Virus record (IMG/VR): IMGVR_UViG_2541047850_000013
DNA from: a virus
Lineage: Duplodnaviria; Heunggongvirae; Uroviricota; Caudoviricetes
Direction: 5' to 3' (one strand)
DNA: 8,478 bases
Part shown: piece after piece, positions 752 to 6,768 of the stretch
Layout: each line of letters begins with the position of its first letter
Numbering within the stretch: the first letter of the stretch is position 1
The notes under the pieces: generated by a model
The model's input: only the letters and a program-made list of their open reading frames with translations
Told to the model about the DNA's origin: nothing
Database searches by the model: none
Made by a program: the position numbers and the translations under genes

Positions 752-783
752 AAAAAACAAAACCCGCCGAAGCGGGTTTTTTG
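752..783. terminator. Bidirectional rho-independent terminator closing the methyltransferase cassette
   Basis: GC-rich hairpin AAACCCGC-CGAA-GCGGGTTT (760..779) with an A-run on the 5' side and a T-run on the 3' side, so either strand reads stem-loop followed by a U-tract. Sits 12 nt past the methyltransferase stop. Confidence 0.75.
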
Positions 784-794
784 TACATATAGAA

Positions 795-1892
795 TTATGG
801 TATTAATCCAGCTGTTCTTGCTTTATTAATATAATTTTTACAGTGGTTAGCCAAATACTCTGCAAACTTGCATGGAAGTGCATTTCCTATTATGACGCAT
901 ACTTTATCCATCAAAGCTGTATCAAACACATAGTTATCAGGAAAAGTCTGTAGTCTAGCAGCTTCTCGAACAGAAATAGTACGCGTATCCTCAGGATGTC
1001 CATATCGCCCACGGCTTAAAGTTGTGCACCCACCTGTAATCGTAGGCGATACGTCATCCCAAAGCATACGACCATAAACATTACTAAATCCTTTATAGTC
1101 GCCTTTATGGCAATCTGGACGGAGTTCTTCGGGAATACACTCCCAAGACATCCCTGGAACAGCCGCTTGTAACCGCTTTATATTGATCTCAGACAAATCC
1201 CTAACAATATGCCAACTCGACAATGGAAACTTCCCTTGCTTCTTAGCCTGTGAAAGAGTTAAGGGTTTTGGCATATCTCCAATAGCTTCTTTAACAGTTA
1301 CCCATTTGGGTTTCTCTCTTCCATCCTTAGAGTGTGATCCATCAGGCAATGGGATGGCAAATCCTTTTCCTGCCAACAGAACAAGCCTTTTTCTGAACTG
1401 TGGTACACCAAAGTCAGCTACTTGCAAAACTCCATAATTAACTATGTAACCAAGTTTTTTCAATCTCTCAATTACTGGCGAAAGAAGATGATTTCCCCGG
1501 GAAGCTAATCCAGGAACATTTTCCATCATGATTGCTGATGGATTGGTTTCTTCAACCAACCGTAACATCTCGTTAATCAATAAATTACGAGGGTCCTCCC
1601 TTTTATACTTGGCAGTGAGACTAGTAAATCCTTGACATGGCGGGCACGCAGATAAAAGATCTAAATGTTGCTCAGGGATAAGATTTAGGATATCACTCCC
1701 CTTTACAAACCGAATATCTTGAACAAAGAGTTTTGTCTCACGATGATTTGCTTGGAAAGTAGCGGCGGCATGTGCGTCCAGTTCAACGGCAGCTTTGACA
1801 TCAAACCCGGCCATTTTTAGTCCCATGGTTAGTCCCCCACCACCGCTAAATAGGTCAACTGCATTCAAACTGGTCACTGTTTTCTCACTCAT
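795..1892 (-). CDS. DNA (cytosine-5)-methyltransferase, 365 aa
   Basis: All diagnostic C5-MTase motifs in canonical order: motif I DLFSGGGG (aa 13-20, AdoMet binding), motif IV PPCQGF with catalytic Cys86, motif VI ENV (aa 124-126), motif VIII QFRKR (aa 165-169), motif IX RTISVREAARLQTFPDNY, motif X GNALP (aa 336-340). A variable target-recognition region lies between motifs VIII and IX. ATG at 1892 overlaps the upstream gene's stop. Confidence 0.93.
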   Translation of the reverse strand: MSEKTVTSLNAVDLFSGGGGLTMGLKMAGFDVKAAVELDAHAAATFQANHRETKLFVQDIRFVKGSDILNLIPEQHLDLLSACPPCQGFTSLTAKYKREDPRNLLINEMLRLVEETNPSAIMMENVPGLASRGNHLLSPVIERLKKLGYIVNYGVLQVADFGVPQFRKRLVLLAGKGFAIPLPDGSHSKDGREKPKWVTVKEAIGDMPKPLTLSQAKKQGKFPLSSWHIVRDLSEINIKRLQAAVPGMSWECIPEELRPDCHKGDYKGFSNVYGRMLWDDVSPTITGGCTTLSRGRYGHPEDTRTISVREAARLQTFPDNYVFDTALMDKVCVIIGNALPCKFAEYLANHCKNYINKARTAGLIP

Positions 1893-3996
1893 TATTTCCC
1901 AACTTCAACTGTTCTGCCTCATCCAAGAATTCTTGGTGAGTTTGAGTTGTCCTCAGCAAGAACCCTGCCCAATCAACGGGTGTTAGGCGTTTTTCTTCGA
2001 TGTATGCAGTATAAGCTTTACGACGTGCCCCACTCAAGCGCTCCCCATCACTTACCAGCGTAACGTGAAAATCAGATGCTATTGATTTAAAATCATTATG
2101 TCTCTCATCGTTCAAAAACTCCTCGAATGTTTCGAAGTAATTAATAATACGATCCATTTCATCATTGGAAATATAATGATGTGGCTTTTTTATTTCAATT
2201 ATTTGTAATTTTCCATCCTGACTAAACAATACAAAGTCTGGTCTTTTATTTTTTTTATCAAAATCTATAAGAAATATCTCCTCACCAGTTTTCTTTTTAT
2301 AAAATTTTTGAAATTCCCTTTTAAGCGTGGACAACGTTTTATTTGCTGTAACTGGGACCCATTGAGGGTTAACTAGCCACGGAGCGGATGCAATTAGATC
2401 TTGTAACTCATCTTCTGCTGTATCCTTTGCGTCTTTTAAAGACTCGAGACGCTCAATAATCTGAAGACGCTTTTTGACCTTTTGACCAAAACTAACGGTT
2501 TCAGCTAGTTGAGCCGTTGCTAAAATATCGTTGAGAACATTGAGCGGTGTATCCGCTTTACTGGAAGCTTCTATTAACTTCTCATCTAAGGATTGTAATG
2601 GTGCTAACATAATACTTAACTGCACTAAATTCTCGAGTGCATCAGGATCATGTAATTCATCACCTCGTAAAGATTTACCCAACAACTTGGCTATTTTTTT
2701 AGCCTGTGCTCGCATATCCTTTTGACCGGCTCCAGGGTATGCTTGCTCGACCTTATCCTCCACTTGCGCTAATTCGAAGAATTGATTCATCATATTATTT
2801 CTAAGGGGGTCGCGAGTTATTTTACCCACAAGTAAAATAACTTCTTGCCCCCAATTCTGAAATTGCGTTCCTAAATCATCAGACCATAGAATATCCCTTC
2901 TATCAGTTTGGATAAGATCTTCTTTTTCGTCTAACCAGTCAGCATGCAACTCACCTACCAAATATGAACGTATAGAGTGCTCTCCAGTAAAACCAGCTTT
3001 TCTATTAAAAACTGCTGTTTGCGCAGCAAACTTACCTCGGCAATAAATTCTAACACCTGCCATTAACTCGTCCTTATAAGGCTCTTTCGCGTATGCAATC
3101 CAACCTAATATCGGGTAAGCTTTCCCTTCATGTTCAAAACCGGCCTTAACAATTGATGAACGCGTGCCGTCAGGATTAAAAGCCGTATAATCACTTAAAT
3201 CCGTACAAGAATCTGTCGCAATACTTCCACTCATGGAACGAAATTCAATTTTAGAGTTAGGCATAACAGGAACAGTAAACTCTCCGACCTCAACTTCATA
3301 GTCAGGATTAGACTTTGTTTTCGAAGTATCAATCAGTTTAATATTCCAGTTTTTACTCTTCACTCCAAAACGTTGTGAAAGCTGCCGAGATAAATCTTTT
3401 ATTTCGCTAATTTTTCTATATTCAAAATCACTTAATATTATTTTAGTATAGGTCCTGTCACTTAGTGTGCCGTCTAAATCCCCAGTTTCCGGTTTATAAG
3501 ACACTGCAGTATCATCCATTATTTTTTCTTTATCTAGCTGAATATGAGCAACCTCATACCCTTCCTTTCCATCACGACTGATTTTTTCCCCACCGGCACT
3601 TATAATCTCGACCCTTTTACAAACACCAAAAGGTGCTAATTTCCCAACGCCTTTCCGTCCCATGACTTTGCGGTGAAACACCTTCGAGGTTTCACCTCTT
3701 TTTGGATCCTTACGTCTTTCTTTGCCAACAACCAAATAAAAGTTCTGTAGTTCATCAGGCGCCATTCCGACGCCATTATCTTCTACTTCTATTGTGACAT
3801 TTTTTGACCTGACAACACCATCCTGTCTAACAGCCAAGTATTGGCCCATAGGTGCTTTTATAGTGACATTAGTCGCATCTGCATCGTAACTGTTAGATAC
3901 TAATTCGGCTATAACAGCATAAGCCCTGTCATATAATTTCACACCTAATTTATCTACTGTCATCCTTGATATCTGCATTTCATATTGACGCGCCAT
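1885..3996 (-). CDS. GHKL-superfamily (MutL/MORC-like) ATPase with central helical region and C-terminal PD-(D/E)xK-like nuclease motif, 703 aa; candidate restriction/effector subunit
   Basis: ATG at 3996 with AGGA 7 nt upstream. Bergerat-fold motifs: N-box ELVSNSYDAD (aa 31-40), G1 box DNGVGM (aa 73-78), G2 box GRKGVGKLAPFG (aa 113-124). Residues about 440-540 are charged, helix-prone and coiled-coil-like. C-terminus GEEIFLIDFDKKNKRPDFVLFSQDGKLQIIEIKKP gives E573...PD587...E601-x-K603. Stop overlaps the methyltransferase start by 8 nt (ATGAGTGA). Confidence 0.85.
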   Translation of the reverse strand: MARQYEMQISRMTVDKLGVKLYDRAYAVIAELVSNSYDADATNVTIKAPMGQYLAVRQDGVVRSKNVTIEVEDNGVGMAPDELQNFYLVVGKERRKDPKRGETSKVFHRKVMGRKGVGKLAPFGVCKRVEIISAGGEKISRDGKEGYEVAHIQLDKEKIMDDTAVSYKPETGDLDGTLSDRTYTKIILSDFEYRKISEIKDLSRQLSQRFGVKSKNWNIKLIDTSKTKSNPDYEVEVGEFTVPVMPNSKIEFRSMSGSIATDSCTDLSDYTAFNPDGTRSSIVKAGFEHEGKAYPILGWIAYAKEPYKDELMAGVRIYCRGKFAAQTAVFNRKAGFTGEHSIRSYLVGELHADWLDEKEDLIQTDRRDILWSDDLGTQFQNWGQEVILLVGKITRDPLRNNMMNQFFELAQVEDKVEQAYPGAGQKDMRAQAKKIAKLLGKSLRGDELHDPDALENLVQLSIMLAPLQSLDEKLIEASSKADTPLNVLNDILATAQLAETVSFGQKVKKRLQIIERLESLKDAKDTAEDELQDLIASAPWLVNPQWVPVTANKTLSTLKREFQKFYKKKTGEEIFLIDFDKKNKRPDFVLFSQDGKLQIIEIKKPHHYISNDEMDRIINYFETFEEFLNDERHNDFKSIASDFHVTLVSDGERLSGARRKAYTAYIEEKRLTPVDWAGFLLRTTQTHQEFLDEAEQLKLGNNE

Positions 3997-4090
3997 TTAA
4001 ATATCCTTCTAAAAGAGTATTTTTTGCTCAAAAAGGGGAAGTTTATGTTTGACTAACATAGCAAAAAAACTTTCATCTTCAAGAGGTTCA
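3997..4090 (-). promoter_or_regulatory. RBS and AT-rich putative promoter region for the ATPase/methyltransferase cassette
   Basis: AGGA at 4004..4007 (minus strand), 7 nt from the ATG. Upstream sequence is very A+T-rich with weak sigma70-like hexamers (for example TTGAAG-16-TATGTT on the minus strand). No single convincing -35/-10 pair. Confidence 0.3.
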
Positions 4091-4343
4091 CACCAAAAGA
4101 ATTTACCTGGTTCACATAACCAGCTGGATTAGTGTTGAGTTTTGGGTAAACCTGAGGATTGAGAAACCAGTACTGATAAATGGGTATCCGCTGTTTTCGT
4201 CCCTCTCCTGAGCTACCGTGTATTGAAATGGCATCGACACTATTACATGGTAGGAGGTTGTATGTATGGTTTAGATATTTTGCATCTTTCACAGACACTT
4301 TTTACCTTTGCCATATCCTTCCACATTGTTTCTCCGGAAATCA

Positions 4344-4511
4344 CTAACGGTTTGGCATTTGCAGAACCATTATCAGCCATAGCTTCTTGCCGTTAACTTC
4401 GGTTGCACCTGATTGTTGCTCACCTTCAGGCAATGATGGGTTATATACACGGACTGAGCTCACTGCAGTAACAACCTTCCCAGTCAACTTACCTATGCTT
4501 TCAACCATCAT
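4344..4511 (-). CDS. Small hypothetical ORF (55 aa); coding status doubtful
   Basis: ORF-track ORF 4344..4565 trimmed to the first ATG (MMVESIGKL...); listed start is TTG. Weak RBS, and an alternative 46-codon ORF (4240..4380, minus strand) overlaps in another frame. Confidence 0.2.
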   Translation of the reverse strand: MMVESIGKLTGKVVTAVSSVRVYNPSLPEGEQQSGATEVNGKKLWLIMVLQMPNR

Positions 4512-4572
4512 CGTAGCGGCATACTTCCGAATTGCTATTATTTCAATTCTGCACCGTTTGCTCAATGTAACG

Positions 4573-5023: not shown

Positions 5024-5986
5024 TTACCCCCTGAAGCCCGGCGGAATTTCAGTGTCCGGTTCAGAAATGTGATTCACGCAACGCTGCGCAGGCGAACGCC
5101 CCAGGCGGATAACCAGTTCATCCCATTTTTCCCGGAGTTTTGCCGGACTCATGATGTTTTTTACCCAGAACGAATCCCGCTGGAGACGCCCAAACATTTC
5201 ACAAATTTGTCTGTGAGTTCTGCCATCCAGCATCCGCATTGTGCGAACGTCATTGGCCCATGCTGTCCAGTTGGGTTCTTTCGGTCTAGTGATCTCGCCA
5301 TCATAGCTGGCCGCCTGCTCGTAAAGACTCACGATTCGTCCCCAGATCCACTGTGCGCACACCAAATCTTCCTGACTTCCCCACTGGCGTTTTTTCGCAC
5401 TGAACACAACCGCGTCAGGGTGTCGGGTTAAAAAATCCTGTTCAGCCGTCTGCGGGTCCGGTTGCGAAGCGTCAGGACAAGAAGATCTTTTATCTGACGG
5501 ATCAGGTTTTAATACTGACGGATCGGGGTCAATCATCGCCCCCCTAATCGGCAGTTTTTTATCAACAGTTGATCCATCAAAATTTGACGGGTCAACCGTT
5601 GAGGGGTCAATATTTGACGGGTCAACTGTTAACGGGTCATTTTTTGCCGGGCTAATTTTTCTTTTCGGTTTATATGACTCACGCGCCGCCGCCGCAGCTG
5701 CTTCGAGTTTTTCCACATTAAGTCGATAGATATTGCTTACATTACGCCCACCGACCTTACGCTCTTCCTTCGTCAGCCAGCCCTCTTTCGCCAGTTCTGC
5801 AATAGCCGATTTCACTGTGGATTCACTTCTTGCACCGATCTGACGCCGGATAGTTTCAATGGCAGGCCATGACACGCCCTCGTCATTGCTGTAGTCTGCA
5901 AGACGGGCCATAACCGCCACCCTGGATAAGATCATGCCGGTGAAGGCGCACCCTTCCCAGACAAGACCATGAAGCTTGCTGCTCAT
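5024..5986 (-). CDS. Phage replication initiator (lambda O-like / replisome organiser) with N-terminal winged-HTH domain and internal repeat linker, about 320 aa
   Basis: ATG at 5986 preceded by G-rich RBS (alternative GTG at 6001). N-terminus MARLADYSNDEGVSWPAIETIRRQIGARSESTVKSAIAELAKEGWL is typical of phage replication-initiator HTH domains. The linker carries 5-aa repeats (VDPSN-like) encoded by 15-bp DNA iterons. Follows the cro-like and YdaT-like genes as O follows cro-cII in lambda. Confidence 0.75.
   Translation of the reverse strand: MSSKLHGLVWEGCAFTGMILSRVAVMARLADYSNDEGVSWPAIETIRRQIGARSESTVKSAIAELAKEGWLTKEERKVGGRNVSNIYRLNVEKLEAAAAAARESYKPKRKISPAKNDPLTVDPSNIDPSTVDPSNFDGSTVDKKLPIRGAMIDPDPSVLKPDPSDKRSSCPDASQPDPQTAEQDFLTRHPDAVVFSAKKRQWGSQEDLVCAQWIWGRIVSLYEQAASYDGEITRPKEPNWTAWANDVRTMRMLDGRTHRQICEMFGRLQRDSFWVKNIMSPAKLREKWDELVIRLGRSPAQRCVNHISEPDTEIPPGFRG
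5569..5675. repeat. Putative origin of replication: six 15-bp-spaced iterons plus adjacent A+T-rich tract, inside the replication gene
   Basis: Direct repeats at exact 15-bp period starting 5569, 5584, 5599, 5614, 5629, 5644: TTGATCCATCAA, TTGACGGGTCAA, TTGAGGGGTCAA, TTGACGGGTCAA, TTAACGGGTCAT, TTGCCGGGCTAA. Each is an imperfect palindrome (TTGAC..GTCAA). A+T-rich tract follows (about 5640..5675). Confidence 0.6.
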
Positions 5987-6008
5987 AAAACCCCCGAACA
6001 CCGTGCTT

Positions 6009-6434
6009 TTAGTGCATCACCACAGCATTCCCTGCCGGGCCGCCGCGATTCATCTGGTCATACAAAACAACCGCTGACGCAACAAAATCATCGACATCCT
6101 TCACCAGCCGATCCCTCCGTTCGACGATCTCACGGTAATATTCAGAACTGTGGCTGCGCATACGGGCCACCAGCAAAGGCGGCATCGCCTTTTCGATCGC
6201 CGGTAACAGAGCCTGCATTTTTTCAACAGCATCAGGGGTGTCTTTATCCAGCCAACGGAAAATTTTCTGGGTATTACGGGCCAGGGCTTCCGGATGGCTG
6301 TCGTCGTACAGTTCAGGGAACGTCATCCCCAGTTCGAAATAAGTCCGGGCTATTTCAGCTGCAGGAACTTTCTCACCATCAGGGTATGCCCAGGCATTCA
6401 TCGCCATGCGGATGTGCTCATGTTTGATTTTCAT
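6009..6434 (-). CDS. ydaT: YdaT-like protein (occupies the cII position; family reported toxic when derepressed in Rac prophage), 141 aa
   Basis: ATG at 6434 with AGAGG RBS; N-terminus MKIKHEHI... recalled as characteristic of YdaT-family proteins. Overlaps the upstream cro-like gene by 17 nt. Family assignment is from memory, not a search. Confidence 0.65.
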   Translation of the reverse strand: MKIKHEHIRMAMNAWAYPDGEKVPAAEIARTYFELGMTFPELYDDSHPEALARNTQKIFRWLDKDTPDAVEKMQALLPAIEKAMPPLLVARMRSHSSEYYREIVERRDRLVKDVDDFVASAVVLYDQMNRGGPAGNAVVMH

Positions 6435-6741
6435 GAATCATTTGCCTCTTGATGCTTCGGGTATGATCGTTTTCGTCATTTGGTTGCTTCATCGACATAT
6501 TCTGCGAATAACATGACGAGCGTCGTAAGTATGTCCAATCAACATCAGGACGAAGTTCTTCACACAGGACACCACCTTTTGTTGCTCGTTCAATCGCAGG
6601 ACATCTCTCAGCAGGTAACTGACGTACACCTTTGATCCATTGATTTACGCTTGGAGGAGATACACCTAAAAGCCTAGCCATTGCTGATTGCCCACCGACA
6701 ACAGCACAAGCTCGTTTGAATGAATAGTTATCTTTTTTCAT
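6418..6741 (-). CDS. ydaS: Cro-like HTH regulator of the YdaS family, 107 aa
   Basis: ATG at 6741 with GGAG 8 nt upstream (ORF-track start at 6762 is GTG and was trimmed). HTH region QSAMARLLGVSPPSVNQWIKG followed by the LPAERCPAIERAT motif recalled from YdaS/Cro-like proteins. Divergent from the repressor gene. Confidence 0.8.
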   Translation of the reverse strand: MKKDNYSFKRACAVVGGQSAMARLLGVSPPSVNQWIKGVRQLPAERCPAIERATKGGVLCEELRPDVDWTYLRRSSCYSQNMSMKQPNDENDHTRSIKRQMIHENQT

Positions 6742-6768
6742 CGAATGAACTCCAAAAAACACGCAACA

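Follow-up and report, generated by a model that had tools for sequence, protein, structure and literature searches.

A GHKL ATPase-nuclease gene overlapping a cytosine-5 methyltransferase gene in a lambdoid prophage: a probable restriction-modification module of the paraMORC3/HgiDII-BbrUII kind

Introduction

A stretch of viral DNA of 8,478 nucleotides (IMG/VR record IMGVR_UViG_2541047850_000013, Caudoviricetes), which we call the window, carries at positions 795 to 3,996 two overlapping genes, one for a 703-residue protein in which a GHKL (Bergerat-fold) ATPase is fused to a nuclease, the other for a DNA cytosine-5 methyltransferase. The question raised by this cassette is whether the two genes make up one restriction-modification (R-M) system and, if they do, whether the system is of an undescribed kind, as had been claimed in an earlier reading of the bare sequence (the original prediction). 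Our answer is that the cassette is probably a two-gene R-M module of the GHKL-nuclease (paraMORC3/HgiDII-BbrUII-like) kind, which a lambdoid (Rac-like) prophage carries in its replication-to-nin cargo slot as a self-contained moron. The class to which it belongs is known, and the cassette is a new, diverged member of it rather than a new category, so the original prediction was right in kind and wrong on novelty.

Architecture of the nuclease

The two genes are encoded on the minus strand, a point left unstated in the original prediction, the coordinates and description of which agree with the open reading frame list and with the Prokaryotic Genome Annotation Pipeline (PGAP). The upstream member of the pair, the nuclease gene (1885..3996, taken from the open reading frame list), encodes the restriction component, and the methyltransferase gene (795..1892) encodes the modification component of 365 amino acids (aa). 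In RefSeq genomes the same two coding sequences carry the PGAP names 'ATP-binding protein' and 'DNA cytosine methyltransferase', and the protein accessions are WP_021548141.1 and WP_024190764.1. The reading frames overlap by 8 nt (ATGAGTGA, 1885..1892, minus strand), as the stop codon of the nuclease gene (TGA, 1885-1887) falls within the opening codons of the methyltransferase gene (ATG, 1892-1890).

Four regions can be distinguished in the 703-aa protein, all encoded on the minus strand. The GHKL ATPase domain occupies about aa 1-190 (3427..3996): Pfam HATPase_c_3 matches aa 28-140 with an E value of 7e-19, there are sequence matches to Hsp90/HtpG N-domains, and in an alignment of the window protein with 15 relatives (16 sequences, 53-91% identity) the ATPase residues E31, N35, D38, D73, G75, G77, G113-G118 and T184 are invariant in 16 out of 16 sequences. 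An S5-fold transducer domain is present after it, at about aa 191-370 (2887..3426, limits approximate). It is followed by an all-helical linker or clamp region, aa 373-540 (2377..2880), for which the AlphaFold2 (AF2) secondary structure gives helices at 373-409, 423-441, 451-478 and 485-521. The C-terminal part, aa 553-700 (1897..2340), is a PD-(D/E)xK nuclease domain, probably of the type seen in Shedu (SduA_C/DUF4263), and its signature, E561, D587 and E601-x-K603, is invariant in the same alignment. The original prediction had anticipated the ATPase and the C-terminal PD-(D/E)xK-like motif, and the 'coiled-coil-like middle' mentioned there corresponds to the all-helical region.

The nuclease part is recognized by weak HSDR_N-type matches only in Pfam (aa 552-624) and by weak SduA (Shedu) matches in PADLOC (aa 507-607); Pfam SduA_C (PF14082) matches 12 of the 16 aligned sequences, and the window protein itself has no match to it at an E value of 0.01 or better. 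In a fold search the 703-aa protein resembles MORC3 and MutL, and also restriction nucleases and Shedu. The profile (hidden Markov model) and structural matches that identify the ATPase domain, the methyltransferase and the prophage genes are strong and well beyond chance. PDB sequence searches, carried out both with the 703-aa protein and with the profile of the 16 sequences, returned Hsp90/HtpG/TRAP1 N-domains only, and no match to the middle and C-terminal parts, meaning that there is no close relative with a solved structure, nor any GHKL-nuclease restriction enzyme with one.

The methyltransferase

PF00145 covers the methyltransferase over its full length (E 6e-58), and the protein passes the cut-off of TIGR00675 and matches the PADLOC model MTase_II with an E value of 9e-91. 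Its sequence carries the 5-methylcytosine (m5C) motifs FSGGGG, PPCQ (C86), ENV, QFRKR, REAARLQTFPD and GNALP, i.e. all canonical motifs are present, and it is a complete m5C enzyme with C86 as the catalytic cysteine of the PCQ motif. The full-length match and the 8-nt overlap uphold the claim that a complete C5 methyltransferase lies directly downstream of, and overlaps, the nuclease gene. With separate nuclease and methyltransferase genes, and with the methyltransferase complete, the pair has the composition of a Type II R-M system.

A side observation concerns the relatives of this enzyme (795-1892) in a PDB sequence search. The best matches are the catalytic domains of eukaryotic DNMT1 (E about 3e-30), with the bacterial M.HaeIII and M.HhaI behind them, and a weak similarity extends even into the variable region.

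Conservation of the gene pair

A survey of species-representative genomes gave 80 loci with orthologues of the nuclease at 49-63% identity, distributed over Nitrospirota, Acidobacteriota, Planctomycetota, Cyanobacteria, Chloroflexota, Bacillota, Patescibacteria and several proteobacterial classes. Where downstream DNA is present, which is the case in 78 loci, the next gene on that strand is an orthologous Dcm (48-68% identity) in about 75. Spacing was measured in the 64 loci where both gene ends could be placed: the genes overlap in 49 of them, the remaining pairs are at most 8 nt apart, and the divergence of the nuclease is correlated with that of the methyltransferase (r = 0.92). The most conserved segment of the methyltransferase, aa 261-300, is within the variable (target-recognition) part, which suggests one shared specificity within this orthologous group. 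Clustering of the neighbours over the 80 loci, in which a helicase, Vsr and a C-protein were sought, revealed no third gene conserved beyond the pair; the neighbours are type I R-M genes, large methylase/helicase proteins, integrases and transposases. The domain architecture and this conserved pairing support the R-M-like reading of the original prediction.

The same survey bears on the question of whether the two genes act together at all. Orphan methyltransferases are common in temperate phages, and one could imagine that the nuclease is a stand-alone enzyme of the Shedu type that senses infection by some cue other than methylation, next to an orphan methyltransferase that shields phage and host DNA from other restriction systems. 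This would fit the three orthologues that have no cognate Dcm, the stand-alone paraMORC3 genes noted by Iyer et al., and VcSduA of V. cholerae, a protein of the same architecture that defends as a single gene without a methyltransferase (PMC12137116). On the other hand, the same-strand adjacency is near-universal across phyla, the frames overlap or nearly do so, the two partners diverge together, no other neighbour is conserved, and both partners are homologous to pairs built around nucleases that pass the HgiDII/BbrUII cut-off (see below). We therefore regard independent functions of the two genes as unlikely.

Two further arrangements were noted. L002 (1565-8094), from a Methylobacter metagenome-assembled genome, is the cargo of a Tn7-like transposon (TnsA, TnsB-like, TniB, TniQ) and contains two paralogous GHKL-nuclease genes; its one Dcm has just 28% identity and is on the opposite strand, a Vsr is also present, and the close orthologue there is without the usual downstream Dcm. 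In L091 (884-6084), a conjugative plasmid of S. agalactiae, a HaeIII-type R-M pair adjoins a gene for a GHKL 'ATP-binding protein' that is followed by a Dcm; the latter two genes are in the same order as in the window, restriction (R) then modification (M), and two m5C systems stand side by side. A HMMER search over the whole library found 2397 cluster representatives at an E value of 0.001 or better, and these form a continuum from 54% down to about 27% identity.

A role in repair was also considered, i.e. that the pair is a methyl-directed repair or nicking module, similar to MutL-MutH or Vsr, which deals with 5-methylcytosine-linked damage such as T:G mismatches and leaves foreign DNA alone. 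The MutL-like fold, the Vsr beside the paralogous pair in L002, and the recruitment to repair that Iyer et al. raised for some paraMORCs speak for it. At the same time a MutS or helicase partner is absent from the window and from most loci, as is Vsr, the pair is found in mobile elements and defence islands, and it is homologous to a family that takes its name from restriction enzymes in REBASE. Membership in MutL/MORC was rejected, since TIGR00585 (MutL) gives only 25.1 bits against a cut-off of 180, and this over the N-terminal 60 residues only. A repair module seems to us extremely improbable.

Relation to the HgiDII/BbrUII restriction enzymes

The original prediction called the module undescribed. 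This part of it did not survive the comparison with family models: residues 5-697 of the window protein match positions 1-648 (out of 659) of the NCBIfam model NF050001, 'BbrUII/HgiDII family restriction enzyme', with an E value of 3.2e-70, and PADLOC models for Type II restriction endonucleases (REase_II) match its N-terminal third. A GHKL domain had been described in R.HgiDII (PMC2441816), the paraMORC3 family had been defined computationally, and a related phage protein has been deposited under that name. Likewise, such proteins can no longer be called essentially uncharacterised, as R.HgiDII is in REBASE and phage defence by VcSduA has been found to need both ATPase and nuclease residues (PMC12137116). 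A match to an already characterised, named system thus exists at the level of the kind of system, and not at the level of equivalogs.

R.HgiDII is classified in REBASE as a Type II enzyme of subtype P, and consists of an N-terminal GHKL domain and an unassigned C-terminal domain (Orlowski and Bujnicki 2008, PMC2441816); the same study lists four more subfamilies of GHKL restriction endonucleases, one of them with a PD-(D/E)xK C-terminus. M.HgiDII and M.BbrUII are homologous m5C methyltransferases and the site of M.HgiDII is GTCGAC (PMC5867850), although the type of M.BbrUII is disputed, as it has been given as N6-adenine (PMC5829577) and as 5mC, homologous to M.HgiDII (PMC5867850).

The equivalog cut-off of NF050001 is 550 bits, and two proteins that served as positive controls, from a Haloplanus plasmid and from phage PhiR44_1 ('ParaMORC3'), score 794 and 751 bits, respectively. 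Each of them adjoins a Dcm. The BLASTP alignment of the window protein with the Haloplanus protein runs from the N-terminus through the nuclease motifs (query aa 7-629) at 25% identity (E 9e-37), and the PD...(D/E)xK motifs align. With the Dcms beside these two members, the window methyltransferase shares 35% and 37% identity over its full length, including the target-recognition region. Because the identity is only 35-37%, its recognition sequence probably differs from GTCGAC, and with DNMT1 as the best PDB match no specificity is transferable from that side either.

Similar pairs are found in phages. In the P2-like Escherichia phage PhiR44_1 (L089, 2992-6040) a GHKL-nuclease and Dcm pair, deposited as 'ParaMORC3' next to 'Dcm', lies beside gpA, and since its nuclease passes the NF050001 cut-off, it is predicted to be a GTCGAC-type restriction enzyme on a phage genome. 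In the P2-like Yersinia phage P37 (L090, 1929-4974) a GHKL-nuclease and Dcm pair is also beside gpA. Both P37 and a prophage-like region of Pantoea agglomerans have the Dcm first, followed by the GHKL protein.

A proposed mechanism and the points against it

The R-M reading is built on what is directly established, i.e. the domains, in which the catalytic motifs are intact, the conserved R-then-M gene pair, which overlaps in most cases, the homology of both partners to HgiDII/BbrUII-type pairs and the mobile, defence-type context. From these we infer protection by methylation, cleavage at specific sites and a requirement for ATP. In the mechanism we propose, the methyltransferase would place 5-methylcytosine on a specific sequence in the chromosome of the lysogen and in the prophage, and this would serve as the mark of self. 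The 703-aa enzyme would then cut DNA that lacks the mark, such as that of a superinfecting phage or an incoming plasmid, by means of its C-terminal PD-(D/E)xK domain. By analogy to MutL, MORC and VcSduA, it may work as a dimer whose N-terminal GHKL domains close when ATP is bound, and a clamp made up of the transducer and helical regions may license the nuclease. A methylation-dependent (Type IV) nuclease was rejected as an alternative, since with an obligatorily linked methyltransferase it would be suicidal.

As regards ATP, the intact ATPase motifs and the analogy to VcSduA, in which the ATPase mutation E27A abolishes protection, suggest that it may matter. A stronger version would be that the protein is an ATP-gated clamp nuclease and not an ordinary Type II enzyme, i.e. 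that GHKL dimerisation traps DNA and licenses the Shedu-type nuclease only where the 5-methylcytosine mark of the partner is absent. We speculate on this version as a possibility, and hold it to be rather doubtful.

There are several points that weigh against an R-M module of this kind. HgiDII has been treated as an ordinary Type II enzyme and is not known to require ATP, so that ATP gating may not be general. The window protein reaches 237.4 bits with NF050001, below the curated cut-off of 550; it is therefore not an equivalog and the GTCGAC specificity is not transferable to it. The gene order is not the same either: in the window R precedes M, with an overlap, whereas M precedes R in Haloplanus, Pantoea agglomerans and P37, and the two genes are convergent in PhiR44_1. 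The R-first order is in itself a difficulty for the survival of a naive host when the system becomes established. The AF2 model of the 703-aa protein is of medium confidence only (predicted local distance difference test, pLDDT, 75; predicted template modelling score, pTM, 0.54), and our literature search found no experimental report on this orthologous group. Finally, the orthologues in L002, L016 and L047 have no cognate Dcm, and VcSduA is a single-gene system that acts without a methyltransferase (PMC12137116), which means that the GHKL-nuclease architecture can discriminate self from non-self by other means.

Prophage and mobile-element context

The original prediction placed the cassette in an accessory slot of a lambdoid prophage, and the genes of the window agree with this: RacR, YdaS, YdaT and DUF977 are upstream of the cassette, and DUF968/RusA/Q are downstream. 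The cassette is present in 21 out of 5426 complete E. coli genomes, with at least 99.7% identity and in the chromosome every time, and its site is in lambdoid prophages between DUF977, a gene of the replication region, and DUF968/RusA/Q. Only 5 genomes share at least 80% of the whole window, which indicates that the cassette sits in different prophage mosaics. The gene content points the same way. In the window (5024-6762) a 325-aa helix-turn-helix/DnaD_N-like replication protein is directly followed by DUF977, but the prophage of L001 (19205-22419), in which the cassette is identical, additionally encodes DUF1627 and a DnaC-like 'ATP-binding protein', and its repressor is another one, accompanied by RelBE.

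Other lambdoid prophages of E. coli have the same flanks at the junction between DUF977 and DUF968 (about 745 and about 4572 in the window) but quite different cargo, namely AbiH, a Sll1717-type P-loop ATPase, DUF4209, DUF5677, QueH, an alpha/beta hydrolase or HokD. The junction looks like a hotspot for defence genes or other cargo. Copies in Citrobacter prophages (87% identity) occupy the same kind of slot, the Serratia copy adjoins a prophage integrase at the prophage end, and the Pantoea ananatis copy is within an integrative and conjugative element (ICE). Other relatives are cargo of Tn7-like elements or lie beside type I R-M genes.

Type II R-M systems can behave as selfish addiction modules, and the occurrence of the pair almost only on mobile elements (prophages, ICE, Tn7-like cargo) would be in line with a module whose main effect is post-segregational killing, stabilising the prophage or the cassette, with phage defence as a side effect. 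Such a function would need the same biochemistry and is compatible with the R-M reading, and the cargo slot, as well as the neighbours in other genomes, are typical of defence; we think it very unlikely that addiction is the main role.

Expression signals and accompanying DNA

On the minus strand, a Shine-Dalgarno-like AGAAGGA (4004..4010) is found 7 nt 5' of the ATG of the nuclease gene, and further upstream there is a promoter-like site, TTGAAG-16 nt-TATGTT (4055..4082). The latter scores under the threshold of a consensus scan, but according to the alignments it is located within a block of about 110 nt 5' of the ATG that is common to the E. coli, Citrobacter, Serratia and metagenomic copies, and this conserved block is, judged from its sequence, a plausible candidate promoter. 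Directly 3' of the methyltransferase stop codon there is a strong hairpin (759..780, minus strand; 9 pairs, 5 of them GC) followed by GTTTTTTCCT, which resembles an intrinsic terminator. The GC content is about 0.40 over the pair, as compared to 0.50-0.55 in the flanks. When the whole window was scanned against Rfam, only sub-threshold chance matches around the terminator turned up.

A region of about 470 bp between the DUF977 stop codon and the cassette promoter (4100..4572) has no annotated feature and, by genome comparison, accompanies the cassette in E. coli, as it is present only in the same 21 genomes. Its proximal part (to about 4245) is also found in one metagenomic copy, and none of it in the Citrobacter or Serratia copies. 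The region has no match in Rfam, PHROG or the phage database, and neither Pfam nor PHROG matches the two small upstream open reading frames, 4053-4298 and 4344-4565.

Implications

The PGAP labels of the two proteins are generic and the PHROGs label of the nuclease family is 'unknown function', hence the pair can be missed as a restriction barrier. This concerns the E. coli lysogens that carry the cassette as well as the Citrobacter, Serratia and Pantoea mobile elements. What remains of interest, apart from a widespread R-M family that current annotation hides, is the role of an ATPase in a restriction enzyme. We know of no study of ATP dependence in GHKL-nuclease restriction enzymes, and the E. 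coli prophage copy, with its tightly coupled methyltransferase, is a convenient system in which the problem can be addressed; the answer would bear on how MORC-type ATPases are coupled to DNA methylation. If the clamp nuclease speculated on above proved to be true, the 2397 cluster representatives would stand for a mechanistically distinct and widespread class of restriction enzymes, with the R-then-M group present in many phyla. It would also unify the HgiDII-type 'Type II' enzymes, paraMORC3 and GHKL-Shedu, and provide a bacterial model for MORC-type ATPases that read DNA methylation.

Comparison with known systems

It is instructive to compare the window pair with the systems that it resembles. 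The paraMORC3 proteins were described as a GHKL domain plus an S5 domain and a C-terminal restriction-endonuclease fold with E-D-ExK motifs, and their genes were noted together with cytosine methylase genes in operons that resemble R-M systems (Iyer, Abhiman and Aravind 2008, PMC2292703). All of these features are found in the window, i.e. intact GHKL motifs with an S5-fold transducer, a conserved C-terminal restriction-endonuclease fold with E-D-ExK, and an associated cytosine methylase, although paraMORC3, a family defined by computation, comes without a threshold against which a protein could be tested. A difference is that Iyer et al. stress neighbourhoods with helicases and Vsr, as well as stand-alone paraMORC3 genes, while the group studied here is a strict two-gene pair.

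GHKL is also among the enzymatic N-terminal domains of Shedu proteins (Gu et al., bioRxiv 10.1101/2023.08.10.552793). VcSduA of V. cholerae (A1552VC_00276), which Adams et al. equate with paraMORC3 and with Shedu type I-D, protects against T1-like phages, and protection is lost in the E27A (ATPase) and K557A (nuclease) mutants (Adams et al. 2025, PMC12137116). The likeness to the window protein is one of architecture: the window protein has a closely linked Dcm and VcSduA has none, and with a Dcm directly downstream in nearly all orthologous loci (about 75 of 78) the window pair does not belong with the single-gene Shedu systems. As compared to MutL and MORC, the window protein is without the C-terminal dimerisation/endonuclease domain of MutL and without the CW domain or coiled-coil insertions of MORC, and its nuclease domain is different.

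The window pair also resembles R.HgiDII and R.BbrUII with their methyltransferases. Shared features are the N-terminal GHKL domain, collinear homology, the aligned C-terminal PD...(D/E)xK motifs and a homologous m5C partner, and members of this type are also found in temperate phages (PhiR44_1). The window protein differs from them in being only about 25% identical, about 40-50 residues longer and part of a separate orthologous group. On sequence grounds, the window pair is thus a distinct orthologous group inside a known kind of system, too diverged from the HgiDII/BbrUII enzymes to be counted among their equivalogs.

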